42,051 nt of DNA from NCBI GenBank assembly GCA_001800745.1, contig MGVZ01000047.1:930-42980 (forward strand), in the 5' to 3' direction. Each line of letters opens with the position of its first letter. The first letter of the stretch is position 1. The notes beneath the pieces were generated by a model that saw nothing but the letters and a program-made list of their open reading frames with translations, was not told where the DNA came from and ran no database searches. The translations under genes were made by a program, and so were the position numbers. The DNA is from Euryarchaeota archaeon RBG_16_67_27 (GTDB lineage: Archaea > Thermoplasmatota > Thermoplasmata > RBG-16-68-12). Shown here one piece after another: positions 17,132 through 30,960 of the stretch.

Positions 17132-17204
17132 TCCCCTCCGAGGGCGCGTCGTCATCTTTATGCGAGCGCGCCGTTTACGGCGCGTCAACGCAGGAGCCGG
17201 GAGC

Positions 17205-18725
17205 ATGGCGAGCCTCGACTACGCACACCGTCGCCTCGTGAACACGCTCGGCCCCGAGCGCGTCGCGCGCGGCGAGTTGGAGCGGATGGTCTACAGCCAC
17301 GACTTCGCGGCGCTCCCGAAGCTCGTCCTTGCCCAGTGGCGCCTCTACCCGGACTTCGTCGTCCTCCCGCAGACGACGGAGGAGGTCTCCCAGGTCGTCC
17401 GCCTGAGCGACGAGACGGGCCTGCCGATCACGCCCCGGGGCGGCGGCACGGGGATGTTCGGCGCCTCCGTGCCGAACCGCGGCGGCGTCCTCATCGATCT
17501 GCGGAAGATGTCGAAGGTCATCGCATTTGACGCGGAGAACCGGACGGCGACCGTCGAGGCCGGCGCGACGTGGGCCGCGGTCGAGGGATACCTGCGCTCG
17601 AAGGGGTTCGCGCTCCCCGTCGTGCCCGCGGCCGCACCCGCGAGCACGGTCGGCGGGGCGATCAACGGCGGCGGCGTGGGCTACGGCTCGTTCCGCCACG
17701 GTCCGCTCCGCGCGCACGTCCTCGACCTCGAGGTCGTGCTGCCCGACGGGAGCGTCATGCGGACGGGGGACGCGCGGGAGTCAGGGGGCGCATTCGCGGA
17801 CCTCACGGCTGCGTTCTTTGGCGCGGAGGGCACCCTCGGGATCGTCACGAAGGCCGTCCTGAGGATCCGCCCGAAGCCGGAGGAGTCGAAGGCCGCTGCG
17901 TACGCGTTCCCGGACCTCGCGTCGGGCGCGGCGTTCCTCACACGGATCGTCGAGACGGGCGAGACCCCGTTCCACGTCGCACTCATCGATCGCGAGCATC
18001 TCACGTTCGAACGCGCGGTCCGCGCGGAGACGCCGGATCCCGCGGACATCGCCATCGTCACTTTCGAAGGGACGAAGGACGAGATCCCCCTCCAGGAGAA
18101 GGCGATCGACGCCCTCGCGGCTGCGGGGAACGGGACGAAGCTCGCGTCCGAAGTCGCCGCGGACCTGTGGGCCCGGCGACACATCCGCTACGGCGCGCGG
18201 CGCCTGAGCCGCGGGCTCGTCGTCTCGTCGAACTTGGTGCCCGTCGCACGGCTCGGCGAGGCGATCGCCCGGACCCAGGCCCTCATCCGCCGGCACAAGG
18301 TCAACGCGGCGATCCAGGTCGCCCTCGTCGACTCGACGACCGCCGCCCTGAGCCCCTACGCCCTCATGGACGACACGACGCTCTCTGGCGGGACGACGCT
18401 CGGTTTCGTGAAGAAGATGGGCGACCTCGCGATCGAAATCGGCGGCCACCCGATCGGCCTGGGCCTCCTCATGGTGTTCAACCTGCGGAAGATGCACGGC
18501 CGGGCGACGGGCTCGATGGGGGCGGTGAAGCAGGTGTTCGATCCCGGCCGCAAGGTGAACGCGGGGAAGACGATCGAGGTCTGGACGAAGTTCAACTGGC
18601 CCCTGATCAACGTGATCCCGCCGCCGTTCATGGAGTTCGGGTTGAACGTCGCCGCGGCCCTTCGCCGGGCGAAGCCATTCCGGGACAGGTTCCTGAAGGC
18701 GTACGAGCGGCAGGGAGGCGCCTGA
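17205..18725 (+). CDS. FAD-binding oxidoreductase, GlcD/D-lactate dehydrogenase-like (VAO/PCMH fold)
   Basis: VYSHD, PDFVVLP, PRGGGTG, STVGG, LEVVLPDG, GAEGTLGIVTKA, KQVFDP..VNAGK. ATG at 17205 after GGAG. Confidence 0.85.
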   Translation: MASLDYAHRRLVNTLGPERVARGELERMVYSHDFAALPKLVLAQWRLYPDFVVLPQTTEEVSQVVRLSDETGLPITPRGGGTGMFGASVPNRGGVLIDLRKMSKVIAFDAENRTATVEAGATWAAVEGYLRSKGFALPVVPAAAPASTVGGAINGGGVGYGSFRHGPLRAHVLDLEVVLPDGSVMRTGDARESGGAFADLTAAFFGAEGTLGIVTKAVLRIRPKPEESKAAAYAFPDLASGAAFLTRIVETGETPFHVALIDREHLTFERAVRAETPDPADIAIVTFEGTKDEIPLQEKAIDALAAAGNGTKLASEVAADLWARRHIRYGARRLSRGLVVSSNLVPVARLGEAIARTQALIRRHKVNAAIQVALVDSTTAALSPYALMDDTTLSGGTTLGFVKKMGDLAIEIGGHPIGLGLLMVFNLRKMHGRATGSMGAVKQVFDPGRKVNAGKTIEVWTKFNWPLINVIPPPFMEFGLNVAAALRRAKPFRDRFLKAYERQGGA

Positions 18726-18726
18726 C

Positions 18727-20157
18727 ATGGGCCTCCTCAGGGACTGGACCTTTGTGGAGGAGAGGACGCGGATCCCCGCGCTGTCCGAGATCGTCCGCGA
18801 GGCGCTCGTCCGCGCCCTGTTCTGCCGGGACGACCGCGTCCTCCCGCGGGAGGTCATCGCCGTCCTGTCGCGGCCGCCCGCGGTGACCGTGAAGGTCCAC
18901 GACGACGGCGAGATCCGCAAGCTCGTCGCGTTCGCGAACGGGGAGGAGACGTCCGCGAACCTCGGGTTCTCCGCGGAGGACTACCACTACTTCCGGAAGC
19001 AGCTCAGCGTCGGTCGCGCGACGGAGATCGGGTTCGCGCCGCGGCCGAAGACCCTCCTCACGTACGACTGGATGATCCCCGAGCCCCGCGGGATCCTCCT
19101 CGACTTCTCCGCGTACGCAGGGATCGAGATCCCCGACCGGGGCGAACGGGCCGTGGCCCAGGTCGGAGCGACGTGGAAGGCCGCGTACGACGCGGCGCTC
19201 GCGTCCGGCCACATCCTGCCGTTCGTGCCCGCGGTGCCCCTCGACTTCGCAATCGGCGACGGGATCTGGGGGGACGCCCCCTTCGTCGGGTACGACGCGG
19301 ACTTCGCCTCCTGCGTCCTCGCCCTCCGGACGATCTCCGCGTACGGCCACCGCACCCAGGTGGGCTTCCAGGACGTGTCGAACGAAGGGACGGGGTACGA
19401 TCTCCTGCACCTGATCCTCCCGCACGCGGCGGAGTTCTTCATCCCCGTCGCCGTGGCCGTGCGGCTCCTCCCTCGTCCCGCGGCACGCAAGACGCTGACG
19501 TACCGGTTCGACGACCCGGGCAAGCTCGGGCTCGCCCTGGACCGGCTCACCCGCTCAGGCCGCTCCGCGTGGTGGGCGAACCTCACGGACGCGGGCGCGT
19601 CCGCCCTCCTGTGGCCCGGCACGGCCCCTGAGCCGTTCACGCTCCAGGTCGCGGTGTGCGGCACGGAGGCGGCCCTCGCAGGAAGGGAAAAGGCGCTCGA
19701 CGCGCTCCTCGCCGGGTTCAAGGCGAAGGCCGCAGACGTCCCGAACCCCTACGACGTGCCGGAGGCCGCGTACCGGAAGACCGCGGACCGCATCGGGCGC
19801 GCCCTGTTCGTCGGAGAGGTCCGTCTGCCCTCGCGTGCCGTGCCGGACCTCCACGGGAAACTCACCGCGCTCGCCCAGCAGGCGGGGACGAAGGTCCACC
19901 TCTTCGCCGCACTCCGGGGGACGGGCACGGCGTCCGCGTTCCCCGCATTCGAGGCGCAGAAGGACCGCACCCGTACGTACGACCTCTCCAAGGGCGTCGA
20001 CCGCGTCGCGGGGACGATCCCGGGCGCCCTATTCGCGTCCCGGCTCGCGCATCTCTGGCGGGAGGACGAGGAATACGTCCGACGGGTCCGTCTCCTCCGG
20101 GCCCTGAAGCTCGAGATCGATGCGGCCCACGTCGTCCAGCCGCTCGCGGCGGTCTGA
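18727..20157 (+). CDS. Divergent FAD-binding (PCMH-fold, GlcE-like) protein
   Basis: GILLDFS...AVAQVGATW, NEGTGYDLLHL (compare GlcD/E N.tGYDL), and C-terminal LKLEIDAAHVVQP. Starts 1 nt after the upstream paralog's stop. Confidence 0.6.
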   Translation: MGLLRDWTFVEERTRIPALSEIVREALVRALFCRDDRVLPREVIAVLSRPPAVTVKVHDDGEIRKLVAFANGEETSANLGFSAEDYHYFRKQLSVGRATEIGFAPRPKTLLTYDWMIPEPRGILLDFSAYAGIEIPDRGERAVAQVGATWKAAYDAALASGHILPFVPAVPLDFAIGDGIWGDAPFVGYDADFASCVLALRTISAYGHRTQVGFQDVSNEGTGYDLLHLILPHAAEFFIPVAVAVRLLPRPAARKTLTYRFDDPGKLGLALDRLTRSGRSAWWANLTDAGASALLWPGTAPEPFTLQVAVCGTEAALAGREKALDALLAGFKAKAADVPNPYDVPEAAYRKTADRIGRALFVGEVRLPSRAVPDLHGKLTALAQQAGTKVHLFAALRGTGTASAFPAFEAQKDRTRTYDLSKGVDRVAGTIPGALFASRLAHLWREDEEYVRRVRLLRALKLEIDAAHVVQPLAAV

Positions 20158-20158
20158 G

Positions 20159-20680
20159 TCACACGCCCGTCCACGGGACGCCCTTGTACGGGCTCATCAC
20201 GATCTGGGACCGGACGTCCCGGATCCCGTCCATCCGCAGGTCGCGGTCGAGGAACGCGTGGAGCTCCGTCATGTCCACGAAGAGCATCACGCACAGGACG
20301 TCGTGGTCCCCTGTCACCCGGTAGACGGCGACCGCACGGCTGTGCGCGCACAGGCGGGCGACGACGCGCTCCCGGTGCGAGGGATCGATCGCGAGGTGCA
20401 CATACACCTTCACGGGGTTCTCGATCAGCTGGTAGTTCAGGTAGCAGGAGTACCCCTGGATGATCCCCTTGTCTTCGAGGGCCTTGATCCGGCGCCGAAT
20501 CGTCGCCTCGGAGATCTTGAGCTGCCGGGCGATCTCGACGTTCGAGAGACGCGCGTTCTCGCGGAGCTTGCTCAGCACGCGGACGTCGACCTCATCGATC
20601 GGGAGCAGACGGAGGTCGAGTCCCTTCCACCGCTCCGCGAGGACGATGTGGTCGCGCACCTTTCCGATCGTGGGAATCAC
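20159..20680 (-). CDS. Lrp/AsnC family transcriptional regulator
   Basis: IDEVDVRVLSKLRENARLSNVEIARQLKISEATIRRRIKALEDKGIIQGY (HTH) and YRVTGDHD (RAM domain). GTG start at 20680 after GGAAGG. Confidence 0.9.
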   Translation of the reverse strand: MIPTIGKVRDHIVLAERWKGLDLRLLPIDEVDVRVLSKLRENARLSNVEIARQLKISEATIRRRIKALEDKGIIQGYSCYLNYQLIENPVKVYVHLAIDPSHRERVVARLCAHSRAVAVYRVTGDHDVLCVMLFVDMTELHAFLDRDLRMDGIRDVRSQIVMSPYKGVPWTGV

Positions 20681-20778: not shown

Positions 20779-21102
20779 TCACATCTGGGGCGCACCGCAC
20801 GCGGGGCAGATCGCCTGCCCCGGCGCCAGGACGGTCAGGCACGCGATGCAGCGATCCGTGCGGATCTTGACGGGAAACATGGAGACGAAGATCCCCAGCG
20901 GGATGAACACGAGGGCGAGCGCGTAGTTCGCGGTCACGATCCCCTCGAGCCCGATCGCGACGAGGAACACCCCCGCAATCTTCATGATCACGATCAGCCG
21001 CTGGACCTTCGGCAGGTTCTTGATCGTCGCGATCTCCTGCCGGTACGTCATGCGCGGGGCCTTGCGCGCTTTGCGGACGGTCTCCGTCGCGGGCGCGGTC
21101 AT
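20779..21102 (-). CDS. Small two-TM membrane protein with C-terminal zinc ribbon
   Basis: Two hydrophobic segments, then CIAC-x10-CPACG. Directly abuts the ferredoxin gene. Confidence 0.75.
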   Translation of the reverse strand: MTAPATETVRKARKAPRMTYRQEIATIKNLPKVQRLIVIMKIAGVFLVAIGLEGIVTANYALALVFIPLGIFVSMFPVKIRTDRCIACLTVLAPGQAICPACGAPQM

Positions 21103-21588
21103 TCAGGCCCCCTCGGGTCGTGCCGCGGGCGCGGCCGGCGGCGGCGCGGGCTTCGCCAAGGGCGCGGCGGGCGGGGTCGTCGAGACGAGCTTCCCGTCCC
21201 TCATCTCAAAACCGTGCTTCGGGAGCATCGTGATCGCGTCGACGGGGCATACGATCGCGCACTTCTCGCAGCCCACGCAGTTGTCGTACACGATCACCGC
21301 CTTCCGCGAGGTGTAGGAGAAGTCCGGGAGGGCGAACTTCCGGTCCGCCATCGCGATCGCCTCGAACGCACAGTTGTCGAAGCAGTGCGTGCAGCCCATG
21401 CACACGGCCTCGTCGACCTCCGCGACCGTCCCCCGGCCACGGATGAACTCCTGCGTCCGGCCCCGGTAGAACGGCTTGTAGCGGTCCTTCGCAAGCTGCA
21501 GGTTCGCCTGGCGGATGCCGCGGTAGTACTCGACGACGGGGTCCAGGGGAGGAGCGTCGGCCGGCACCGCGCCGACGGGCGTCGCCAT
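21103..21588 (-). CDS. 2x[4Fe-4S] ferredoxin-domain protein with Pro/Ala-rich tail
   Basis: CMGCTHCFDNCA and CVGCEKCAIVCP. ATG at 21588 overlaps the upstream stop. Confidence 0.9.
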   Translation of the reverse strand: MATPVGAVPADAPPLDPVVEYYRGIRQANLQLAKDRYKPFYRGRTQEFIRGRGTVAEVDEAVCMGCTHCFDNCAFEAIAMADRKFALPDFSYTSRKAVIVYDNCVGCEKCAIVCPVDAITMLPKHGFEMRDGKLVSTTPPAAPLAKPAPPPAAPAARPEGA

Positions 21589-22553
21589 CAGCCGCCTCCC
21601 TTCCGCCCCGGCGGCGGGGGCTGCGTCCGCTTCGGGTCCACGTTGCCCCCGGTCGGGTAGTCGCCGGGCAGGCTCTCCGCGAGGAACTGGGTGATGTCCA
21701 TCACGCGGTACCGGAACCGCTCCTCCTCGGGCCGCCACTTGTTCTCGTGGTGGAGGCAGCCGAAGTGGGTGAGGCACTTCGGGCACGCGGTCAGGAGGAC
21801 GTCTGCGTCGACCTCCGCGGCCTCGTCCATCCGCATCCGCGTGAGGCCCTTCGTCTTGTCGTTGCAGTACATCATCTGCGCGACTCCACAGCACTGCGCG
21901 TCCGCGCGGAAGGTCTTGAGCTCGACGAGTTCCGCGTTGTCCACCCGCTTGATCAGCTCCCGGGGCTCCTCGTAGACGGGGTCGACGGGCATCTGCCGGC
22001 ACGAGCGGCACGGGTCCTGGTACGCGACGCGGATTCGCTTCGCGGATTCCCCCCGCGGCGGGATGCGGAGGCCGCGCTCGTAGAGGATCTGTGTGATGTG
22101 CACGACCCTCACGCCGTCGAGCTTGTAGTCGAGCTTGAACGTCCGGTAGCCCTCCGCACACGACGTGACGAGGGTCTTCACGCCGAGCATCTTGATGATC
22201 TTCGTGTTGTAGTCGCGCATCTTCCGGAAGACGTCGACCTTCCCCTGCCACAGCTGGTCGTGGCCGCAGCACTTCATGAAGGAGCGGTCGAGGATCATCG
22301 GCTCGATCCCGACGGCCCGGAGGAGCTTGATCGAGGAGTCGAAGATGATCCCGTGGTTCGTGTCCCCGTAGTTCGTGTGGGAGAACTGCATCTCCTGGTC
22401 GTAGTAGTCCACGCACCCCGGGTAGTATGCGTACTCCGACGCGTGGGCGACCTTGATCTCCGGGACCGTGGTGTCGTCCGCCTCCGCGTCCAGGAGCCGG
22501 AAGAGGACGGGATGCGGGATCGTCCGGCCGGGACCGTACTCCGTGTCCATCAT
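21588..22553 (-). CDS. CCG-domain Fe-S protein (HdrD/HdrB/GlcF-like)
   Basis: Two cysteine-rich CCG domains: YYPGC...KCCG...TSCAEG and YQDPC...QCCG...TACPKC. Confidence 0.9.
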   Translation of the reverse strand: MMDTEYGPGRTIPHPVLFRLLDAEADDTTVPEIKVAHASEYAYYPGCVDYYDQEMQFSHTNYGDTNHGIIFDSSIKLLRAVGIEPMILDRSFMKCCGHDQLWQGKVDVFRKMRDYNTKIIKMLGVKTLVTSCAEGYRTFKLDYKLDGVRVVHITQILYERGLRIPPRGESAKRIRVAYQDPCRSCRQMPVDPVYEEPRELIKRVDNAELVELKTFRADAQCCGVAQMMYCNDKTKGLTRMRMDEAAEVDADVLLTACPKCLTHFGCLHHENKWRPEEERFRYRVMDITQFLAESLPGDYPTGGNVDPKRTQPPPPGRKGGG

Positions 22554-23869
22554 TCGGGCTCACCGCCGTCCGCCGCGATCCGGCCCGCGCTCTTCGCCCT
22601 CTCCTCGAGGATGTAGTCGCTGTACTTGATGTCGAGCGGGCAGACCGCGCTGCACGCGTCGCACGCGAGGCACGTCCAAAGCGGCACGCCGTCGTGCTGC
22701 TTCTTGAACGTGTTGTACACGAGGTTCAGGCCGCCGCGGGCGTCGTCCTCGACCTTGGTCACCGGGCACACCGTGTGGCACTTGCCGCACTGGTAGCACT
22801 CGTTGAGGAGGTACTCGTACGTGCTGTACGGCCGCCGGAGGCCGAACCATGCGGTGAGCACGACGAACGCCGGAAGGAACAGGAGGGTGTTCATGTTCGG
22901 GTACAGGACGTACAGGACCCAAACCATCGTGTCGCCTCCCGTCGCGTCGTACCACGCGAACAGACCGAGGAACCCCGCGAGGCCGGCGGCCCCGGTCAGG
23001 AGGACGGCCTTCCGGGCCGTCGCCTCGGGCAGCAGGACCACGGCGAGCGCGGTCACCCCTGCGGTCCCGCAGAGGACCGCGAGGAACAGGGAGAGCGGCA
23101 CGAGGTGCGGCTGGCTGTAGAGGGGCAGGCTGCCGGGCTGAAGGAGCAGGAGGAGCGCGTGCAGGATGACGATCAGGAATCCCGCGCCGGAGAGGGGCAC
23201 GATCCAGCTGCGCATCGGGCGGAAGCCCAGCCGCCGCAGGCCGACGTAGGTCGCGAGCCCGACGAGGATCGGCGGGACGAGGAAGAACCACTTCATCGTG
23301 TCGTCCGGGATCAGCGGGAGGACCCTGCGGACGTCCGGGCTCGGGTCGATGTCGGGCGTGGACCAGCGCTCCGCGACGACCTCGCGGATCGAGTAGAGGG
23401 ACGCGGTGAAGATCGAGACGATCCCCGCGAGGCCCACGGCGGACCGGACGGGCGCCTTCGCGGGGCGCGCCTCGCGACCCCGGTCAAGGAACGGGAGCAG
23501 GATCAGGGCGATGATCGGGATCCCGCTGAGGAGGTCCCCCCAGAGCTGCGGGCTGAACCGGACGGGACCGAGGGAGAACTGCGGGAAAATGTCCGCGACC
23601 TTGAGGAGGCCCCAGGAGAAGAGCAGGTACCAGTCCGGGACGATGAGCTCGGACACCTGGGGACTCCGCGCGGGGCCGAGGAACGGGGTCACGAACGCGG
23701 AGAGGAAGAACATGAGCGCGACGAGGAGGAAGATCACGACGAGGTCCCGCGTGGCCTCCTGGGGCCAGAGCGGGATCCCGGGCTGGTGGTCCGTCCGCGC
23801 GGGGCCGTACTGCCGGGTGAACCCGGGCCGGTCCTCGAACACCCGCTCCCGCACCTTCTCGAGTTCCAT
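22550..23869 (-). CDS. petD: Cytochrome b6f subunit IV-like (PetD) protein fused to extra TM helices and an HdrC-like 2x[4Fe-4S] domain
   Basis: N-terminal PLWP, IVPDWYLL (PEWY-like Qo motif) and LLPFLDRG. Several additional TM helices. C-terminal CYQCGKCHTVCP and WTCLACDACSAVCP. ATG at 23869 after GAGGTG. Confidence 0.88.
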   Translation of the reverse strand: MELEKVRERVFEDRPGFTRQYGPARTDHQPGIPLWPQEATRDLVVIFLLVALMFFLSAFVTPFLGPARSPQVSELIVPDWYLLFSWGLLKVADIFPQFSLGPVRFSPQLWGDLLSGIPIIALILLPFLDRGREARPAKAPVRSAVGLAGIVSIFTASLYSIREVVAERWSTPDIDPSPDVRRVLPLIPDDTMKWFFLVPPILVGLATYVGLRRLGFRPMRSWIVPLSGAGFLIVILHALLLLLQPGSLPLYSQPHLVPLSLFLAVLCGTAGVTALAVVLLPEATARKAVLLTGAAGLAGFLGLFAWYDATGGDTMVWVLYVLYPNMNTLLFLPAFVVLTAWFGLRRPYSTYEYLLNECYQCGKCHTVCPVTKVEDDARGGLNLVYNTFKKQHDGVPLWTCLACDACSAVCPLDIKYSDYILEERAKSAGRIAADGGEPE

Positions 23870-23877
23870 CGTGCACC

Positions 23878-24648
23878 TCAGTGGGGCTCCGCGACCCCCT
23901 GGATCCAGACGAGGGCCATGTGGAGGATCATGAGCACCGTCGCGACTAGGGGCAGGATGAAGACGTGGAGCCAGTACATCCGGAGGATGTAGATCCCCGA
24001 CAGCGTGCCGATGTCCCCCCACAGCAGGGTCGCGGCCGCGTCTCCGATGAACGGGGTCGCCCGCGTCATCTCGATCCCGATGTTCGCCGCGCCCTCGCTC
24101 AGGTTGTTCCCGGGCAGGAGGTAGCCGGAGTACCCGAAGAGGATCGTGAGCAGGAGGAGGACGACCCCGAGGAGCCAGTTCAGCTCCCGCGGCTTCTTGT
24201 ACGCCCCCGTGAAGTACACGCGACACATGTGAAGGAACACCGCGGCGACCATGATGTGCGCCGCCCAGTGGTGCATGCCGCGCACGATGAATCCGAACGG
24301 CACGTCGTTCATGATGTACAGCATCGACTGCCACGCCTTGTTCGTCACGTCGTCCTCAGGCCCCAGGAGCTGGTACGTGCCGTCGGGCACGTAAAAGAAG
24401 CCGAGGATGATCCCGGTGATCGTGAGGATGATGAACGCGACGAACGAGATCCCGCCGAGGCAGTACAGCGGGTACCAGTACCAGATCGTCTTCAGTTCGT
24501 ACTTCTCCGCGTGGCTCCGCGGCATCTGGCGCTGGTCCGTCTCGATCGCCTTACGGGTGAGGTCCACCCAGGGCGTCGTGGGGAATCTGTCGCGGATCCA
24601 GCCGACGACGGTCCTCTTCCCTTCCTGCCGGAGCGAGCTTCCCGCCAT
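23878..24648 (-). CDS. petB: Cytochrome b6-type (split) cytochrome b
   Basis: YCLGG, heme ligands H-x13-H (MHHWAAHIMVAAVFLH) and H-x14-H (LHVFILPLVATVLMILH), YKKPRELNW, GYLLP, C-terminal QGVAEPH. ATG at 24648. Confidence 0.95.
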   Translation of the reverse strand: MAGSSLRQEGKRTVVGWIRDRFPTTPWVDLTRKAIETDQRQMPRSHAEKYELKTIWYWYPLYCLGGISFVAFIILTITGIILGFFYVPDGTYQLLGPEDDVTNKAWQSMLYIMNDVPFGFIVRGMHHWAAHIMVAAVFLHMCRVYFTGAYKKPRELNWLLGVVLLLLTILFGYSGYLLPGNNLSEGAANIGIEMTRATPFIGDAAATLLWGDIGTLSGIYILRMYWLHVFILPLVATVLMILHMALVWIQGVAEPH

Positions 24649-24655
24649 GCTCCCC

Positions 24656-25447
24656 CTACCCACAGTAGACGTACCAGGCGGGGTCCGCCATGCCGCCGAC
24701 GAGGTTGCCGCCTTCGACCTTGACCGCGATGATCGGGAGCGCTCGGTCCGCGGGGCCATGGGTGTGGAGCGCCCCGACGTACGTCGCGTTGTTCCGCGGG
24801 TTCACGTGCTGGACGAGGGTCATCGGCTCGTACTGCGAGCCATGGCATACGCAGTAGATGGGGTCCTCTCCGTACTTCTCGTATGTCGGCGTGGGAGCGA
24901 TGTACCGCCGGTCCGGCGGCGGGTTGTCGACGACGTGCCATCCCGGATAGCAGCACAGGTGGACGCACCGGTCGAACGCGACGATGATCCGGACGCCCCG
25001 CGGCTGCCCCGTGTCCGGATCCACATCCGCGGTCGGGTCATCGTAGAAGAGCGAGAACCCCTCCGGCAGGCTGATGTCGTCCGGGGCCGCGAAGACGGTG
25101 TCGTCCCGCTTCACGCGGATCACGAGAACGGGGAACCCCGTGCCCGGCACGTGGGCGTCGTCCTGGAAGAGACCGCGCCACACGCCCGTCGCGCCCTCCC
25201 ACTCCTTGAAGTCGCCGACCTTCATGGGCGTGCCGACCTTCGAGTTCCACCACTGCGGGGTCGGGAATTTCGTGTAGAAGATCGTCTCGCGAATCTCGCC
25301 GGAGCGCTCGATCGGGGGCGGGACGAGCTGCCGCCCCGAGACGGCCCCGAGGGAGGCGAGCGTGCCGATTGCCCCGACGGTCATCCCGAGCTTGACCCAC
25401 TCCCGACGGGTCCAGCCCCGGTTCCTCTCGCCCTCTTCCCAGCTCAT
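24656..25447 (-). CDS. Rieske [2Fe-2S] protein with twin-arginine signal/anchor
   Basis: TRREWVK followed by a TM segment. Boxes CVHLCC and CVCHGSQY. GPADRALP. Confidence 0.93.
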   Translation of the reverse strand: MSWEEGERNRGWTRREWVKLGMTVGAIGTLASLGAVSGRQLVPPPIERSGEIRETIFYTKFPTPQWWNSKVGTPMKVGDFKEWEGATGVWRGLFQDDAHVPGTGFPVLVIRVKRDDTVFAAPDDISLPEGFSLFYDDPTADVDPDTGQPRGVRIIVAFDRCVHLCCYPGWHVVDNPPPDRRYIAPTPTYEKYGEDPIYCVCHGSQYEPMTLVQHVNPRNNATYVGALHTHGPADRALPIIAVKVEGGNLVGGMADPAWYVYCG

Positions 25448-25456
25448 CGATCTCCC

Positions 25457-25750
25457 TCAGCGGAACGTCCGCGGTGGAACAATCTTGGGCCTTCGGAGCT
25501 TGTGAATGAGCTCGTCCGGCATGAACTCTCTGCGATAAACGTCCGTCGCGACGGCCGCGAGGACGAAGACCATGCCGAGGAAGAGCGCCATGTACGTGTC
25601 CGTGAGGCCGTCGGAGACGCCGGCGGACACCTGGAGCGCGAGGAGGATCGCGAGCGCGGTGAACCAGAGAACACCCACGACGAGGCCGCCGATCGCGAGG
25701 GCGGCCATCGCGCTCCGGTGAGGCGGGTCCGTCCGGATGATCTCCGTCAC
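25457..25750 (-). CDS. Two-TM membrane protein, probable accessory subunit of the Rieske/cyt b complex
   Basis: Two TM helices followed by YRREFMPDE..K.RR.K. Located in the operon between the cupredoxin and Rieske genes. Confidence 0.75.
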   Translation of the reverse strand: MTEIIRTDPPHRSAMAALAIGGLVVGVLWFTALAILLALQVSAGVSDGLTDTYMALFLGMVFVLAAVATDVYRREFMPDELIHKLRRPKIVPPRTFR

Positions 25751-26400
25751 GGGAGCCCCTTCCGCATGTGGTCCCGGTGGTCCCTGAACTTCGGGGTCGA
25801 GGACTTGATCACGAAGTAGCTCACGCCGATCCAGCCGATCATCGCCGCGATCCCGATCATCCCGATCCAGTACGCGCGGATGAGGACGCCCTTGTCCGCA
25901 GGCCCTTCGTCGCCGCCCGTCGGCGCGCCCGCCAGGACGATCTCGCCGATCATTCCCGCGGCCTGCCCGCCGACGTCGATCCGGTGCGGGATGCAGTAGA
26001 ACCGTATGCCGCGGGCGGACGCCTCTGGGGTGAACGAGACTGCCCCGTTCGTGACGTTCGTCATCGAGTTCACGGTGAACTCGAGGAACGACCGGTTCCC
26101 CGGTCGGATGAACCCGCTGTCGACGAGGCCCCGGGAAGACCGGTCCTCGTTGTCGATCGTGAACGTGTGGAAGTTCAGCGGTTGCGTGTCGTTATTGATG
26201 AACGTGATGTTGAGGATGATTGGGACCTGCGGGATCGTGATTACGATGGGCACGAATACGGGGCCGTCCGCCCCCGTCGTGCCGACGACCTCGAGGGAGA
26301 GCTTCGGCACCGCGTTCTGGGCGGCCGCAGGAGGGAGGCCGGAAGGCGCAGCGAAAACGGTCAATATTCCTATCGCTACGAAGAGTGCGATCCTCCTCAT
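25747..26400 (-). CDS. Membrane-anchored blue-copper protein (cupredoxin)
   Basis: Signal peptide, HTFTID, FYCIPH...GMIGEI (type-1 Cu His/Cys/His/Met) and a C-terminal TM helix. Confidence 0.82.
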   Translation of the reverse strand: MRRIALFVAIGILTVFAAPSGLPPAAAQNAVPKLSLEVVGTTGADGPVFVPIVITIPQVPIILNITFINNDTQPLNFHTFTIDNEDRSSRGLVDSGFIRPGNRSFLEFTVNSMTNVTNGAVSFTPEASARGIRFYCIPHRIDVGGQAAGMIGEIVLAGAPTGGDEGPADKGVLIRAYWIGMIGIAAMIGWIGVSYFVIKSSTPKFRDHRDHMRKGLP

Positions 26401-26687: not shown

Positions 26688-27014
26688 ATGAAGAAGGAGG
26701 AAACCCTCCAGAGAATCAAGGAAGTGGAGGACCAGGTCCGGCGTTCCAAGGACGAGGTCCTCGCGGAGAGGGAGAGGGTCCTCCGGACCGCGCGGCGGGA
26801 TTCGCTGGATCTCCGGGACGCGCTCCGGGCGCAGGCCGAGGGCCGAGGGGAGGCGATCCTCAAGGCCGCCGAAGCGGCGATCGCGAAGGAGAAGGAGGGG
26901 TTGCTCGCGGCGGGCCGCAGGGGAGCGGCGGACCTCCGTGGCCAGGCCGATGCGAACATCGACCGCGCGGTCGACCGGCTCATCGAGAAGTTCAAGGGTG
27001 CGCTAAATGCTTAG
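26688..27014 (+). CDS. atpH: A-type ATP synthase subunit H (G)
   Basis: Charged coiled coil (ETLQRIKEVE...NIDRAVDRLIEKF). First gene of the operon, before atpI. Confidence 0.85.
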   Translation: MKKEETLQRIKEVEDQVRRSKDEVLAERERVLRTARRDSLDLRDALRAQAEGRGEAILKAAEAAIAKEKEGLLAAGRRGAADLRGQADANIDRAVDRLIEKFKGALNA

Positions 27015-29034
27015 GCCCGTGACGATGACCCGGGCCCTGATCGTGGGACCCCGGGAGCGGATGGAAGGCGTCATCGAGACGCTCTACGGGCTCAAGATCC
27101 TCCACATCGTCGACCATCGGGAAGGCACGGAGGGGCTCGACATTGGCAAGCCGCTGGGACGAGCGTCCGACGCATCGGAGATCCTCGTGAAGCTCCGTTC
27201 GATCGCCGCGATTCTCCAGATCGATGAGAAAGCCGCCGGGGCCGAGGGGGAGGCCGGCGAGTTGCGCGAGAAGATCCTCGCCCTCGAGCTCAACATCTCC
27301 GAGGAGGACGCCGCGAAGAAGAAGACGCAAGGCCTCCTCGCCGATCTGCAGCGGAGAATCGAGGAGATCCGGCCGTTCGCGCTTCTCCCCCTGAGCCTCG
27401 CGGACTACCGCGGGTACGAGAGTCTCGAGGTGCTCGTCGGCAGGGTGCCCCGCGAGATTGCCGGGCTCGAGTCCGTCACGAGGGAGCACGAGGCGTTCCT
27501 CGCCCAGGACGTCCTCGCGGTCTTCGTCGCGAAGGCCTCGGCGTCCGCGATGCGAGAGCATCTCGCCCAGCGCGGCTTCGCGGCCCTCACGGTCCCCGAG
27601 GGGGACGGGAGCCCCGCGCCCATCCTCACAGAGCTCCTGGGAGAGAAGGACCGGTGGGAGACACGACTTGCGGAGGTCGAGCAGCGGCTCGTGACCCTCC
27701 GGGAGCGGTACGCGGGGTTCCTCGTGGCGGCGAGGGTCCGCCTCGAGGTCGAGGTCGAGAAGGCGGAGGCGCCCCTGCGCTTCGCAGTGACGGAGCACAG
27801 CTTCGTCGTCGAGGGCTGGGTCCCGTCGGAGAAGTTCGAGGCGATCCGGGCCGACCTCGCGAACGTCCCGGGGATCTTCGTCGACGACCTCGAGATCGAC
27901 GAGCACGAGGCGGACCCGCCGATCCTCCTCCGGAACGTGAAGCCGTTCCGTCCGTTCGAGATGCTCGTGAAGCTCTTCTCGATTCCGAACTACCGGGAGA
28001 TCGATCCCACGTTCAGCGTGGCCCTCGTGTTCCCGGTCTTCTTTGGCCTGATGATCGGGGACGTCGGGTACGGGATCGCATGGTTCCTGTTCGGGCTCTT
28101 CCTCTGGAAGAAGGCGAAAGACCCGGGCGCCTGGCGCGACCTCGTGACGACGATCACCTGGGGCGGGTTCTTCGCCTCCCTGTTCGGGATCTTCGTGTTC
28201 GCGGAGGCGTTCGGGATCCCGTTCCACACGCCGCCCGAAGAGGTGGGCCACGCGGGCGCCCGCGGGCTGAGCTGGTCGATCGTCCTCGGGTTCGACATCC
28301 CGTTCCACGCTCGGATCGAGAAGCTCCACGACGTGCCCGCGTTCATCACCCTCTCGATTGTGGCGTCCTTCCTGCACCTCGGCATCGGATACGTGATCGG
28401 CTTCTTCAACGAGGTCCGGCACAACGTCAAGCACGCGGTCGGCAAGGTCTCCTGGCTCATGATTCTCCTCGGGCTGTTCGTCGTGATCCTCGTCCGTACG
28501 GCACGGTGGCCGGGGCTCGGCCAGGAGATATGGGAGGGGCCGATGGCCTGGTTCCCGCGCGGTGACCCGCTCGGGGTCCTCCCGGACAGCCTGATGGTCA
28601 TCCCGACCGTCGGCTTCGTGGCGGAGAACGCGATCCCCGGCCTCGCGATCTACCTGCTGATCGTGGGGATCGTGCTCCTCATCGCGACGGAGGGCGGGCT
28701 CCACGTCATGGAGGTCTTCGGCCTCATGGCGAACATGATCTCGTACGCACGGCTCGCCGCCGTCGGGGTCGCGAAGGCCGCGATGGCCCTCGCATTCAAC
28801 ATCATCGCCCTCGACACCGCGGTCCTCCCGGGCCTGAGCGAGGGCAACTACGTCCTGGTGGCGATCGGCCTCTTCGTCGCGTTCCTGTTCCACATGATCG
28901 TGTTCCTACTCGGCGCGATCTCCGCGTACATCCAGGCGATCCGCCTTAACTACGTCGAGTACTTCCTCAAGTTCTTCAAGGGGGCCGGGACGGAGTTCCG
29001 GCCCTTCGGTGATCGAACGAAGACGGAGGTGTGA
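27007..29034 (+). CDS. atpI: A-type ATP synthase subunit I (a)
   Basis: EGWVP, PNYREIDPT, FFGLMIGDVGYG, ISYARLAAVG, IQAIRLNYVEYFLKF. Confidence 0.96.
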   Translation: MLRPVTMTRALIVGPRERMEGVIETLYGLKILHIVDHREGTEGLDIGKPLGRASDASEILVKLRSIAAILQIDEKAAGAEGEAGELREKILALELNISEEDAAKKKTQGLLADLQRRIEEIRPFALLPLSLADYRGYESLEVLVGRVPREIAGLESVTREHEAFLAQDVLAVFVAKASASAMREHLAQRGFAALTVPEGDGSPAPILTELLGEKDRWETRLAEVEQRLVTLRERYAGFLVAARVRLEVEVEKAEAPLRFAVTEHSFVVEGWVPSEKFEAIRADLANVPGIFVDDLEIDEHEADPPILLRNVKPFRPFEMLVKLFSIPNYREIDPTFSVALVFPVFFGLMIGDVGYGIAWFLFGLFLWKKAKDPGAWRDLVTTITWGGFFASLFGIFVFAEAFGIPFHTPPEEVGHAGARGLSWSIVLGFDIPFHARIEKLHDVPAFITLSIVASFLHLGIGYVIGFFNEVRHNVKHAVGKVSWLMILLGLFVVILVRTARWPGLGQEIWEGPMAWFPRGDPLGVLPDSLMVIPTVGFVAENAIPGLAIYLLIVGIVLLIATEGGLHVMEVFGLMANMISYARLAAVGVAKAAMALAFNIIALDTAVLPGLSEGNYVLVAIGLFVAFLFHMIVFLLGAISAYIQAIRLNYVEYFLKFFKGAGTEFRPFGDRTKTEV

Positions 29035-29040
29035 AACCGC

Positions 29041-29274
29041 ATGGTAGTGGCAGAAAGCGCGCAGGGAATGGTCGCCCTGTCCGCGGCCCTCACCATCCTC
29101 GGGACGGGTGTGGCCACGGCGTGGGCGGAGAAGGTGATTGGTGCGGCGTCGGTGGGCGCCCTGGCGGAGAAACCCGAGCTGTTCGGCCGGGTGCTCCCGC
29201 TGGTCGTCATCCCAGAGACGATCGTCATCTTCGGCCTGATCATCGCGTTCCTGATGCTGGGCCAGCTCGGGTAG
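29041..29274 (+). CDS. atpK: A-type ATP synthase subunit K (c), single hairpin
   Basis: AWAEKVIGAASVGALAE...VIPETIVIFG. Confidence 0.95.
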   Translation: MVVAESAQGMVALSAALTILGTGVATAWAEKVIGAASVGALAEKPELFGRVLPLVVIPETIVIFGLIIAFLMLGQLG

Positions 29275-29290
29275 TCGGGGCGAGTCCCGA

Positions 29291-29863
29291 ATGACCCTGG
29301 AGACCGTCGTCCAGGCGATCCTCGAGAAGGGGAAGTCCGAGGCCGGGGAGATCCTCCAGCAGGCGCGCGCGGAGCGCGAGCGCATCCTGGCGGACGTCCG
29401 GGCCGAAGGCGGGAAGTCGATCGAGGAAGAGGAACGCCGCGCCCACGAGGCCGCCGCTCGCCGCCGCGTGCAGGAGCTCGCGCGCGGGGAGCTCGAGGCG
29501 AGGAAGATCGTCCTCGCCGCGCAGAAGGAGGCGCTCGATCGCGTGTACGAGCGCACGCTCGTGCGGCTCGGGGAGCTGAAGGAGAACGCGGAGTTCCTCC
29601 AGCGGCTCCTCAAGGCGAACGAGGCGGAGTGGCGCGCGGGCGGCCAGGTATACTCGAATGCGAAGGACGAGGCCGCCGTGCGACGGATCGTCGGGGAGCG
29701 CTACGCCGGCCGCGTCGAGTGTGCGGGTGGCGTCGTGATGGAGACCGCGGACGGCACGAGGCGGGTCGACCTCCGGTACGAGTCGATCCTGCGGGACGTC
29801 TGGAACGACAGCGTGAGGGAGGTGGCGGAGACTCTATGGCCCTCGAAATCCTCAAAGGCGTGA
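29291..29863 (+). CDS. atpE: A-type ATP synthase subunit E
   Basis: MTLETVVQAI, coiled coil, GGVVMETADGTRRVDLRYESIL. Confidence 0.93.
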   Translation: MTLETVVQAILEKGKSEAGEILQQARAERERILADVRAEGGKSIEEEERRAHEAAARRRVQELARGELEARKIVLAAQKEALDRVYERTLVRLGELKENAEFLQRLLKANEAEWRAGGQVYSNAKDEAAVRRIVGERYAGRVECAGGVVMETADGTRRVDLRYESILRDVWNDSVREVAETLWPSKSSKA

Positions 29864-30960
29864 CGCTGCCCCCGGCGCTCGAAGGGGCCGTCCGGCGGTA
29901 CCGTTGGGTCCGCGACCGAATCCCGCTCGACATGGGGAACTACCCGTACGTCACGGCGAGGATCAAGGCGAAGCGGGCGCACCTCCTCCCGCCCGAGACC
30001 TACTCTCGGCTACTCCAGATGGACATCCCGGAGATCGCGCGGTTCCTCGGCGAGGGGGAGTACAAGCAAGAGATGCTCGCCCTCGGCGCGCGGTACGCGG
30101 GCGTCGACCTGATCGAGATGGCGACGTCCCGCAACCTCGCGAAGACGTACAATCAGATCTACGAGTTCTCCGAGGGCCAGCTGCGGACGATGGTTGCGCG
30201 GTACCTCGACCGGTACGACCTCCAGAACGTGAAGACGATCGTCCGCGCGAAGACCTACGGTGCGACGGAGGCGGAGGTCGAGGAGGACCTCGTCCCCGCG
30301 GGGAGCTTCAGCGAGGAGTTCCTCGACCGGCTCGCGGAGGCGGACACCCTCGCGGAGGCCTTCGGCGCCCTCGAGGGGACGATCTACGCGGCGGCCCTGG
30401 ACACCCTCGGCGAGACGCCCGAGCGTGTGACGAACTGGGCGGAATGGGAAGACCTCGTGTCCCGTCTGTACTACCAGGACCTCCTGTCGTCCGTCCCGCC
30501 GTCGACGGAGGCGAACCGGTTATTCCGGAGTTTCATCCAGAAGGAGATCGACATCGTCAACCTGAAAACCCTCCTGCGGACGTGGTTCGCCAAGGCGAGC
30601 TTCGACCGGGACATCTTCGTGAGCGGCGGCATCGAGACGGCACCGGAGGAGCTCGAGGAGGCGACGCGCCTGGAGTACCCGGACCTCGTCGCGCACCTCC
30701 AGGACTATTCGTTCTACGACGACATCGCCGCGGACCTCGAGCAGGCGCAGACCCGCGGGGTCGGCCTCCTGATTCGGCGCGTGGAGAAAGTCCATCTCAT
30801 CCAGGCCGCGCGATACGCGCACCTGCACCCCCTGTCCATCCTCCCGATCCTCGACTACATCGTCCGGAAGGACCGCGAGGTCCAGAACATCCGGCTCATT
30901 GCGCGCGGGAAGGAGAGCGGCCTCTCCACAGGCGTGATCCGCGACCTTCTGGTGGTGTGA
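29860..30960 (+). CDS. atpC: A-type ATP synthase subunit C
   Basis: NYPYVTARIKA, DLQNVKTIVRAK, EIDIVNLK, KDREVQNIRLIARGK. GTG at 29860 overlaps the atpE stop, but the start is uncertain. Confidence 0.93.
   Translation: MTLPPALEGAVRRYRWVRDRIPLDMGNYPYVTARIKAKRAHLLPPETYSRLLQMDIPEIARFLGEGEYKQEMLALGARYAGVDLIEMATSRNLAKTYNQIYEFSEGQLRTMVARYLDRYDLQNVKTIVRAKTYGATEAEVEEDLVPAGSFSEEFLDRLAEADTLAEAFGALEGTIYAAALDTLGETPERVTNWAEWEDLVSRLYYQDLLSSVPPSTEANRLFRSFIQKEIDIVNLKTLLRTWFAKASFDRDIFVSGGIETAPEELEEATRLEYPDLVAHLQDYSFYDDIAADLEQAQTRGVGLLIRRVEKVHLIQAARYAHLHPLSILPILDYIVRKDREVQNIRLIARGKESGLSTGVIRDLLVV

Follow-up and report, generated by a model that had tools for sequence, protein, structure and literature searches.

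A complex III subunit IV fused to an iron-sulfur domain in soil Thermoplasmatota, and its possible role as an electron-input module on the cytoplasmic side

The stretch of DNA analysed here (the window) comprises 42,051 nucleotides (nt) of contig MGVZ01000047.1 (positions 930 to 42,980 of the forward strand) from Euryarchaeota archaeon RBG_16_67_27, a member of the Thermoplasmatota. Its reverse strand carries a complex III operon in which the gene for subunit IV, the C-terminal half of cytochrome b, continues without a break into four additional transmembrane (TM) helices and an iron-sulfur (Fe-S) domain. This fusion gene stands between the gene of a split cytochrome b and that of a protein with two CCG motifs. 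The features on which our argument rests are the following, in coordinates of the window.

22550..23869 (-): subunit IV-Fe-S fusion gene, 439 amino acids (aa): cytochrome b C-terminal half (subunit IV plus helix H), four-TM insertion and 2x[4Fe-4S] domain
23228..23869 (-): cytochrome b-like part, residues 1-214, delimited by PF00032, AlphaFold2 (AF2) helices, the structural match to QcrB and regional conservation
23627..23638 (-): PDWY quinol-oxidation (Qo) motif, residues 78-81, a P[E/D]W[Y/F] motif in the ef loop
22838..23227 (-): four-TM insertion, residues 215-344, helices 220-243, 250-279, 282-310 and 314-344
22595..22837 (-): 2x[4Fe-4S] domain of the Fer4_8/HdrC type, residues 345-425, predicted cytoplasmic, about 8 residues past the last TM helix
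21588..22553 (-): double-CCG protein, 321 aa, similar to HdrB, the C-terminal part of HdrD and EtfD; in translational coupling with the fusion gene
23878..24648 (-): gene of a split, b6-type cytochrome b with four helices, of which B and D carry the His pairs; PF00033, E 1.5e-35
24451..24462 (-): C-L-G-G, the CxGG haem cn (ci) signature in helix 1 of the cytochrome b; the Cys of YCLGG aligns with b6 residue 35

Translation of 22550..23869 (-) gives 439 aa with zero interruptions. Its ATG lies 8 nt past the stop of the cytochrome b6-like gene and its TGA (22552..22550) overlaps the ATG of the CCG gene (22553..22551), so that both the continuous frame and the overlap claimed in a first-pass annotation of the window are borne out. 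The unusual length alone raised the question of whether petD and hdrC had been merged through a frameshift or a chimeric contig, for which no support was found and whose probability we consider negligible. A word-indexed search returned 217 relatives, the best 95 of which cover 97-100% of the query at 61-100% identity, 94 of these 95 being 433-447 aa long. When one genome per species was scanned, 38 loci were obtained, all in metagenome-assembled genomes (MAGs) of Thermoplasmata/Thermoplasmatota from soil, sediment and groundwater; 32 of them hold a near-full-length match (residues 1-436 or more), the frame is broken by a contig end in five (L008, L020, L022, L029 and L037), and the best match is partial in L025. 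Neighbouring genes were located in these loci by tblastn with the window proteins: the cytochrome b gene is directly upstream of the fusion in 34/38, the other four contigs beginning within the fusion gene, and the CCG gene is directly downstream in 37/38, the contig of the 38th ending first. Logan contigs from four independent public soil or sediment runs, placed on 21500..24700, contain no indels and no joints. Their pieces bridge the stop/start overlap (22429..22625), the junction of the four-TM block with the Fe-S domain (22757..22906) and that of helix H with the four-TM block (22881..23618, 23059..23618 and 23181..23612). The same continuous frame in 38 species-level genomes and in 95 near-full-length database proteins, together with these contigs, argues against an artefact. 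The first-pass annotation had named separate petD and hdrC genes in homologues, with a frameshift or misassembly in the reads, as what would overturn the fusion; since the close homologues have no separate petD and hdrC and the reads no frameshift, neither was found among close relatives. The fusion gene is therefore real and not a misassembly. In a wider sample of 401 Thermoplasmatota genomes from 162 genera, 127 genomes in 37 genera match part of the query (threshold E 1e-15), a count that takes in matches confined to a plain subunit IV or to the Fe-S part.

The identification as a PetD (subunit IV) fusion with extra TM helices and an HdrC-type dicluster is supported by Pfam, structural alignment and sequence relatives alike. 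Residues 1-214 begin with a conserved cytoplasmic N-tail, followed by helices E (36-60), F (107-128), G (140-160) and H (198-214). Pfam Cytochrom_B_C (PF00032) matches residues 73-152 with 24.0 bits (cut-off 20.7), the PDWY motif is invariant in 27/27 homologues and kept in distant fused forms too, and the F-G loop on the n-side (D129-A139; the negatively charged, cytoplasmic side of the membrane) has 93% mean identity to the window protein. Residues 75-218 superpose on residues 291-430 of Corynebacterium glutamicum QcrB (VIA-align; Z 8.6, root mean square deviation 3.7 A, 121 residues), which means that the cytochrome b-like part consists of helices E-H, one beyond the chloroplast subunit IV. 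The PDWY subunit IV that had been proposed thus stands, with the Pfam model passed and the region from the ef loop to helix H aligned with QcrB, and it has four helices and not the three originally counted. The three-helix (E-G) pattern of b6f subunit IV is not matched, as helix H is present and is followed by four more helices. A Foldseek search of the whole model against PDB gave no match at E 0.001 or better, its top rows being actinobacterial QcrB. Helices E-H with PDWY are part of the normal quinol-oxidising core.

The AF2 model, built on the 27 homologues, has a mean predicted local distance difference test (pLDDT) score of 67 and eight helices, namely E-H and the four of the insertion as listed above; a Kyte-Doolittle scan gave the same eight hydrophobic segments. 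The K/R-rich loops DRGREARPAKA, RRLGFRPMR and RRPYS fall on the predicted inner side, loops alternating between the two sides, and the RR anchor of the Rieske protein and the signal-like N-terminus of the cupredoxin of the same operon were counted as further support for the topology. These predictions are consistent with eight TM helices and with N- and C-termini that are both cytoplasmic.

The inserted block (219-348) was modelled at pLDDT 90-98. VIA-align of these residues retrieved generic helical bundles only (de novo designs, TTYH, connexins and DsbB; Z 10 or less), so no family can be named for it, in agreement with the earlier remark that the membrane block belongs to no recognisable family: structure prediction with Foldseek and VIA-align gives a generic four-helix bundle, with four helices where about five had been counted. 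In an alignment with other family members it appears as a clean insertion of ~130 residues between helix H and the conserved YEYxLNxCYQC junction, and it is absent from compact relatives. No other part of the protein is less conserved (40% identity to the window sequence on average), although a few residues are invariant (R212, R213, E282 and F335). Two His residues (ILHALL and QPHLV) had been pointed out in this block, and they are indeed present at positions 237 and 255, but their conservation failed in the homologue alignment, with His in 7/27 and 2/27 homologues, respectively. They were rejected as haem ligands and, not being conserved, are not cofactor ligands. The insertion is best read as a cofactor-free spacer or anchor; it is specific to this soil clade and brings the chain back to the cytoplasmic face. 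The end of helix H (...TYVGLRR) resembles that of the last inserted helix (...AWFGLRR; residues 198-344, 22838-23275), and in L152 a single stretch aligns with both ends. To judge by such sequence likeness, the four-helix insertion may have originated by duplication around helix H.

Past the membrane part, two CxxCxxCxxxCP motifs, C358-x2-C361-x2-C364-x3-C368-P and W398-x-C400-x2-C403-x2-C406-x3-C410-P, are separated by a 31-residue linker, in line with HdrC-type domains and the long helical linker between their two motifs; both are found in the translation where the first-pass annotation had announced them. Pfam Fer4_8 matches residues 355-414 with 36.5 bits (cut-off 27). In the 27 homologues the eight Cys are invariant with a single exception (Phe at 406), the invariance of W398 does not extend beyond this clade, and the domain has 95% mean identity to the window protein. 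Its best solved sequence relative is the 2x[4Fe-4S] chain of chloroplast NDH subunit I (8rja_F, E 7e-5), followed by HdrC chains (E 9e-5 to 4e-3). The dicluster had been called HdrC-type, and as to kind this holds, given Fer4_8 and the HdrC relatives in PDB; membership of an HdrC equivalog does not, since TIGR03290 gives 29.6 bits against a cut-off of 160 and NF041890 27.4 against 270. Judged on its sequence, the domain is HdrC-like in kind and a member of no equivalog.

The CCG protein encoded next contains two stretches of Pfam CCG (PF02754, E 2.3e-22) and is 78-91% identical over 30 sequences. Its best solved relative is EtfD (9ojn_A, E 1.2e-7), with HdrB at 1.6e-4. The pattern CX(n)CCGX(m)CXXC, which HdrD/EtfD-type proteins would be expected to have complete in both CCG domains, is complete in the second only (C182, C221, C222, C257 and C260).

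A search of cluster representatives gave 243 matches at E 0.001 or better, selected ones of which were scanned with Pfam. Among them, single polypeptides of 543-626 aa combine Cytochrom_B_C, Fer4 and two CCG domains (P0143, P0149, P0151, P0159 and P0160), and P0137 and P0150 are short forms with subunit IV and Fer4. In P0153 (932 aa) the dicluster and CCG parts are fused and ~350 residues separate the subunit IV part from the Fe-S part. The separate CCG protein of the window can be aligned with the CCG portion of these fused forms. Since these relatives hold subunit IV, Fe-S and CCG in one polypeptide (a Rosetta stone argument), the window fusion and its CCG protein represent a split HdrD/EtfD-type module; by this sequence argument, one HdrD/EtfD-like module on complex III is made up of the Fe-S domain as one half and the CCG protein as the other. 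Other additions occur: P0183 (531 aa) is a fusion of subunit IV with FrhB/FdhB, the F420-type dehydrogenase beta subunit, a type for which a search of the 401 genomes of the phylum gave matches to the FrhB part only, and in P0169 (577 aa) a subunit IV-like N-terminus is fused to Laminin_G_3. From these two arrangements, subunit IV seems repeatedly to have served as a platform for C-terminal additions. P0236 is a fusion of GlcD, Fer4_8 and CCG.

Among fused genes with upstream DNA present, the fused gene directly follows a cytochrome b gene in ten metagenome loci (L041, L042, L043, L045, L064, L069, L080, L111, L116 and L117), and it does so in 8/8 genome loci, which belong to five sampled families (f15, f29, f30, f33 and f38). 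The order in these five families is Rieske, cytochrome b and fusion, often followed by a ferredoxin-like gene and a small zinc-ribbon membrane protein. Other families have a plain subunit IV of 241-307 aa (E-H), with no Fe-S or CCG gene in flanks of 1.2 to ~4 kb. In L064 (6390-12943) and L111 (5892-13025) the genes behind the fusion encode an HdrA-like flavoprotein, an Fe-S protein of 420 aa and a protein of the MvhD/FlpD type; L080 (4022-11155) has genes of the same sizes and order. In L041 a multihaem cytochrome c gene precedes the fusion and an extra HdrC/HdrB-like pair comes after it. As a separate observation, the cytochrome b of the high-GC lineage of L064 and L111 is N-terminally fused to a cupredoxin and a Big_7 domain.

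The partner cytochrome b of the window has chain I of a cytochrome b6 (7r0w_I, E 4.7e-37) as its best solved relative, and its helix B and helix D His pairs coincide in the alignment with the b6 ones. In the sections of Dibrova et al. 2017 (PMC5600118) drawn on here, CxGG in the first helix is defined as the signature of haem cn (ci) and given as absent from the archaeal short-cytochrome-b subfamily N. The motif is present in 47/50 cytochrome b rows beside fused subunit IV genes and in 0/9 of those beside a plain subunit IV, all of which read [T/S]xGS; a seemingly plain row with CLGG (L029) was discarded as a contig-end artefact. From this signature a third haem (cn), covalently bound, is probable in the partner cytochrome b.

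The remaining genes of the operon and a convergent gene pair beside it are as follows.

25747..26400 (-): membrane-anchored cupredoxin-like protein, Cys-x-Pro-His...Met pattern, no Pfam match
25457..25750 (-): DUF7318 small membrane protein (Pfam), conserved position
24656..25447 (-): Rieske protein, CVHLCC...CVCHG, RR motif in the N-terminal anchor, weak TIGR01416, conserved position
21103..21588 (-): ferredoxin-like 2x[4Fe-4S] protein, 161 aa (the 'rnfB-like' gene of Diamond et al. 2022), its start overlapping the CCG stop by 1 nt
20779..21102 (-): membrane protein, 107 aa, C-terminal zinc-ribbon-like CxxC...CxxC, last conserved operon gene
17160..20157 (+): GlcD-like (521 aa) and GlcE-like (476 aa) flavin adenine dinucleotide (FAD) proteins, convergent; candidate donors whose membership of the operon is uncertain

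The order cupredoxin, DUF7318, Rieske, cytochrome b6, fusion, CCG and ferredoxin is conserved, the ferredoxin-like gene being found in 31/38 loci and the remaining seven being cut by contig ends. The cupredoxin-like protein, at whose position Diamond et al. 2022 (PMC9038741, in the part consulted) give a plastocyanin-like protein, presumably accepts electrons from the Rieske centre. One haem-copper oxidase is encoded in the genome, which is 75% complete, and no second cytochrome b was found there, so that the operon is probably the organism's only complex III.

We consider it somewhat probable, by analogy with mycobacterial EtfD, that the module is an electron-input wire attached to complex III on its n-side. 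Together, the fusion, its CCG partner and the ferredoxin-like protein would form a chain of Fe-S clusters on that side, presumably within electron-transfer distance of haem bn and of the probable haem cn. Electrons from a cytoplasmic donor would enter through this chain and reduce quinone at the quinone-reduction site (Qi) through haem bn/cn, and the quinol would then be oxidised at Qo of the same complex, from where electrons would travel through the Rieske centre and the cupredoxin to the haem-copper oxidase. Reduced ferredoxin, by way of the ferredoxin-like subunit, and/or the neighbouring GlcD/E-like flavoproteins could be the donor. In EtfD, according to the portion of the cryo-EM study used here (PMC13083937), the wire runs from the electron transfer flavoprotein (ETF) through CCG clusters, 2x[4Fe-4S] and haem b to menaquinone with spacings of 4-9 A, and one of the CCG sites has four Cys and a linear [3Fe-4S] cluster. 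The parts of the window module come in the same order (CCG, dicluster, membrane haem protein), complex III taking the place of the last. Partners of the donor type recur in relatives, as HdrA-like flavoproteins with MvhD-like proteins (L064 and L111), the FrhB fusion P0183, the GlcD fusion P0236 and the ferredoxin-like genes, and these donor-like modules, along with the aerobic host, favour an input wire. ETF itself was set aside as the donor, since an EtfD orthologue is already present beside etfBA in this genome: contig C68 (6140-11853) carries etfB and etfA and then, on the opposite strand, a 707-aa EtfD orthologue (PDB 9ojn_A, E 4.7e-103), to which the complex III module is 28% identical. 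The gene content thus suggests that the organism has an ETF:quinone wire separate from the complex III module. A narrower version, in which the Fe-S chain feeds electrons of reduced ferredoxin straight to haem cn at Qi and thereby makes a covalently hard-wired ferredoxin:quinone reductase of the b6-type complex, is a tentative proposal that we regard as rather doubtful.

Several observations weigh against the input wire. The first CCG motif is C47, C95, C96 and C132 with G135 replacing the last Cys, and C132-A-E-G135 is invariant in 30 sequences (22146-22160), while fused relatives retain C-A-E-C; since the four-Cys site of EtfD contains a linear [3Fe-4S] cluster, the window protein too may bind an unusual one. 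The NCBIfam matches of the Fe-S domain (GlpC, HdrC, QmoC and GlcF) are all far under the curated cut-offs, and its pLDDT in the AF2 model is below 50. With regard to haem cn, L042 and L069 (YLGG) and L116 (SLGG) are exceptions to CxGG in fused lineages. In a maximum-likelihood tree the plain forms make up one clade (100/98 support), which reduces the association of CxGG with the fusion to one contrast, a lead and not a test; we rejected it as statistical support. As to the GlcD/E-like proteins as donors, none is encoded beside the distant fused forms L064, L080, L111 and L041, and the synteny is limited to one order in which even the ATPase neighbour gene is syntenic; adjacency is thus weak evidence where synteny is general. 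Finally, the HdrD proteins linked to membrane cytochromes, HdrDE and DsrMK, run the opposite way, from quinol to a cytoplasmic disulfide.

Such an outward flow, in which the second Qo electron would pass from haem bp to bn/cn, exit through the 2x[4Fe-4S] domain to the CCG site and reduce a cytoplasmic disulfide or low-potential acceptor, as in HdrDE/DsrMK or the proposed bifurcating Rieske/cytochrome b complexes of anammox bacteria, seems to us unlikely in the window. The arrangement would suit it, with the dicluster close to the membrane and CCG at the periphery as in HdrDE-type reductases and HdrABC, where CCG is the catalytic end, and so would the Fe-S domain's similarity to QmoC and, in L064 and L111, the HdrA- and MvhD-like proteins encoded nearby, which could serve confurcation. 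Planctomycete cytochrome bc complexes with cytoplasmic oxidoreductase subunits are moreover documented (PMC5600118, as far as consulted). However, the organism is aerobic and no candidate acceptor (DsrC, Apr or coenzyme M/coenzyme B, CoM/CoB) is found in the operon, the accessory modules of relatives are of the donor type (FrhB, GlcD-type, ferredoxin), the closest solved relative EtfD runs inward, and the first CCG motif is degenerate. About equally improbable is a version of the input wire with another donor, in which the Fe-S domain and CCG protein replace GlcF and dock the GlcD/GlcE-like proteins, making the assembly an anchor for a 2-hydroxyacid dehydrogenase, that is, a glycolate or D-lactate:quinone oxidoreductase on complex III. 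The GlcD-like protein has FAD_binding_4 and FAD-oxidase_C domains and matches TIGR00387 (E 2e-51), and the GlcE/GlcD pair adjoins the operon in 27/38 loci, the contig ending first in ten and L038 being without it. No GlcF-like gene lies beside GlcD/E, the other two Fer4+CCG loci of the genome adjoin ETF genes, and a GlcD-type protein fused to Fer4_8 and CCG exists (P0236). Against this anchor, the pair is on the opposite strand, its synteny is of the general kind in this order, it is lacking beside L038 and the four distant fused loci just named, and the GlcF model NF008434 gives 21.5 bits against a cut-off of 333.

It could also be imagined that the CCG protein and the four-helix insertion form a quinone site of their own, and that the fusion merely co-localises this self-contained quinone reductase with complex III, with no transfer to the b/c haems. 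Own quinone sites have been proposed for GlpC and for CCG proteins of the SdhE type, and the confident folding of the four-helix block and its few invariant residues would fit, but the block is absent from most family members, poorly conserved, and has two His that vary among homologues, and we consider this very unlikely.

Compared with known systems, the core is that of the split b6-type complexes (b6f, and the b6c of Firmicutes and heliobacteria): a four-helix cytochrome b with CxGG and b6-like His, a separate P[D/E]WY subunit and an upstream Rieske gene. In Bacillus QcrC, subunit IV is fused to cytochrome c, so that the C-terminal fusion of a redox domain to subunit IV has a precedent. The window subunit differs from both in adding helix H and four further helices. 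Its redox domain is an iron-sulfur one on the n-side, whereas that of QcrC is a haem c on the p-side (the opposite, positively charged side), and its acceptor is a cupredoxin instead of the cytochrome c or f of split b6-type complexes. The likeness to EtfD (Rv0338c/MSMEG_0690; PDB 9ojn) lies in a 2x[4Fe-4S] domain and two CCG domains on a membrane haem protein and in one four-Cys CCG site in each, but EtfD is one polypeptide with its own five-helix mono-haem domain, unrelated to the cytochrome b of complex III. The window fusion has no haem b membrane domain of the NarI/HdrE or EtfD type; its membrane part is the cytochrome b C-terminal half plus extra helices without conserved His. With HdrDE, DsrMK and QmoC it shares the dicluster beside a membrane cytochrome with CCG beyond, and weak sequence matches to HdrC, HdrB and QmoC. 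Those systems have cytochromes of the NarI/HdrE type and no Rieske protein or Qo site, and carry electrons from quinol to a cytoplasmic acceptor.

The same general concept is met in the anammox planctomycetes, in which Rieske/cytochrome b complexes have cytoplasmic oxidoreductase subunits (after PMC5600118, which cites Kartal 2011/2013 and de Almeida 2016). In the sections consulted of the latter paper, Dibrova et al. propose a cytochrome b with an attached cytoplasmic oxidoreductase as the ancestral bc design. As far as these accounts go, the anammox complexes resemble ours in a short cytochrome b core with CxGG and cytoplasmic Fe-S/flavin subunits, a redox partner on the n-side of complex III; theirs are NAD(P)-binding Fe-S proteins from separate genes, whereas that of the window is of the HdrD/EtfD type, fused to subunit IV, and archaeal. 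The gene neighbourhood itself is already in print: Diamond et al. 2022 (PMC9038741, consulted in part) describe, for Ca. Angelarchaeales, 'hdrD-like' and 'rnfB-like' genes adjoining complex III and propose ferredoxin entry at complex III. Their operon is, from that part of the paper, the operon of the window, and related MAGs (VBL*/VBM* records) are among our 38 loci. The portion used of Tully 2019 (PMC6336850) describes an orphan RnfB in Marine Group II along with cytochrome b and Rieske. The consulted text of these two papers makes no mention of an Fe-S domain on subunit IV, a four-helix insertion, fused forms or CxGG, and we did not find the fusion itself described: our literature search, outside which subscription papers (e.g. 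Dibrova et al. 2013, BBA) and supplements fell, found no paper on a subunit IV-Fe-S/HdrD fusion, the four-helix insertion or a link with CxGG.

In the usual view, complex III works with two quinone sites and a single exit, which leads to a periplasmic carrier. The window and a large fraction of the genomes sampled from the phylum show signs of a third, cytoplasmic port. If this port is an input, ferredoxin-level or flavoprotein electrons would join the Q cycle without a separate dehydrogenase, and the energy-yield models of these abundant soil archaea would change. If in addition ferredoxin electrons reached haem cn, this would be the activity that has long been under debate for the chloroplast b6f complex in cyclic electron flow, a demonstrable role for haem cn, and a living example of the bc ancestor proposed by Dibrova et al. 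The operon could in any case offer a tractable natural system for the purpose of haem cn and for a b6-type complex as ferredoxin:quinone reductase, and the variant in the window, with its CCG half split off and a four-helix spacer inserted, shows which parts of the design are dispensable.

Around the operon, the GlcD-like protein has a C-terminal extension of ~50 residues past FAD-oxidase_C (18560-18722), in which W475, P481, P487, L495 and P506 are invariant in 23 sequences; from its sequence it could be a docking or membrane-binding tail. An Lrp/AsnC regulator gene (20159-20680, -) separates the GlcE-like gene from the complex III operon; it is found at that place in only 8/38 loci (L005, L013, L017, L022, L023, L024 and L030, and, further off, the L152 type). 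Contig C53 of the same genome (2246-12133) combines an MvhD/FlpD domain (E 4e-54) with matches of the HdrB/HdrC type and another etfBA pair, a gene set that resembles a soluble Hdr/ETF-type system. Divergent from the complex III operon is an operon for an A-type ATPase (27007-30960, +; subunit I, proteolipid, E, C and others), an adjacency that is kept in the 38 relatives and is also reported in the part of Diamond et al. 2022 (PMC9038741) referred to above.

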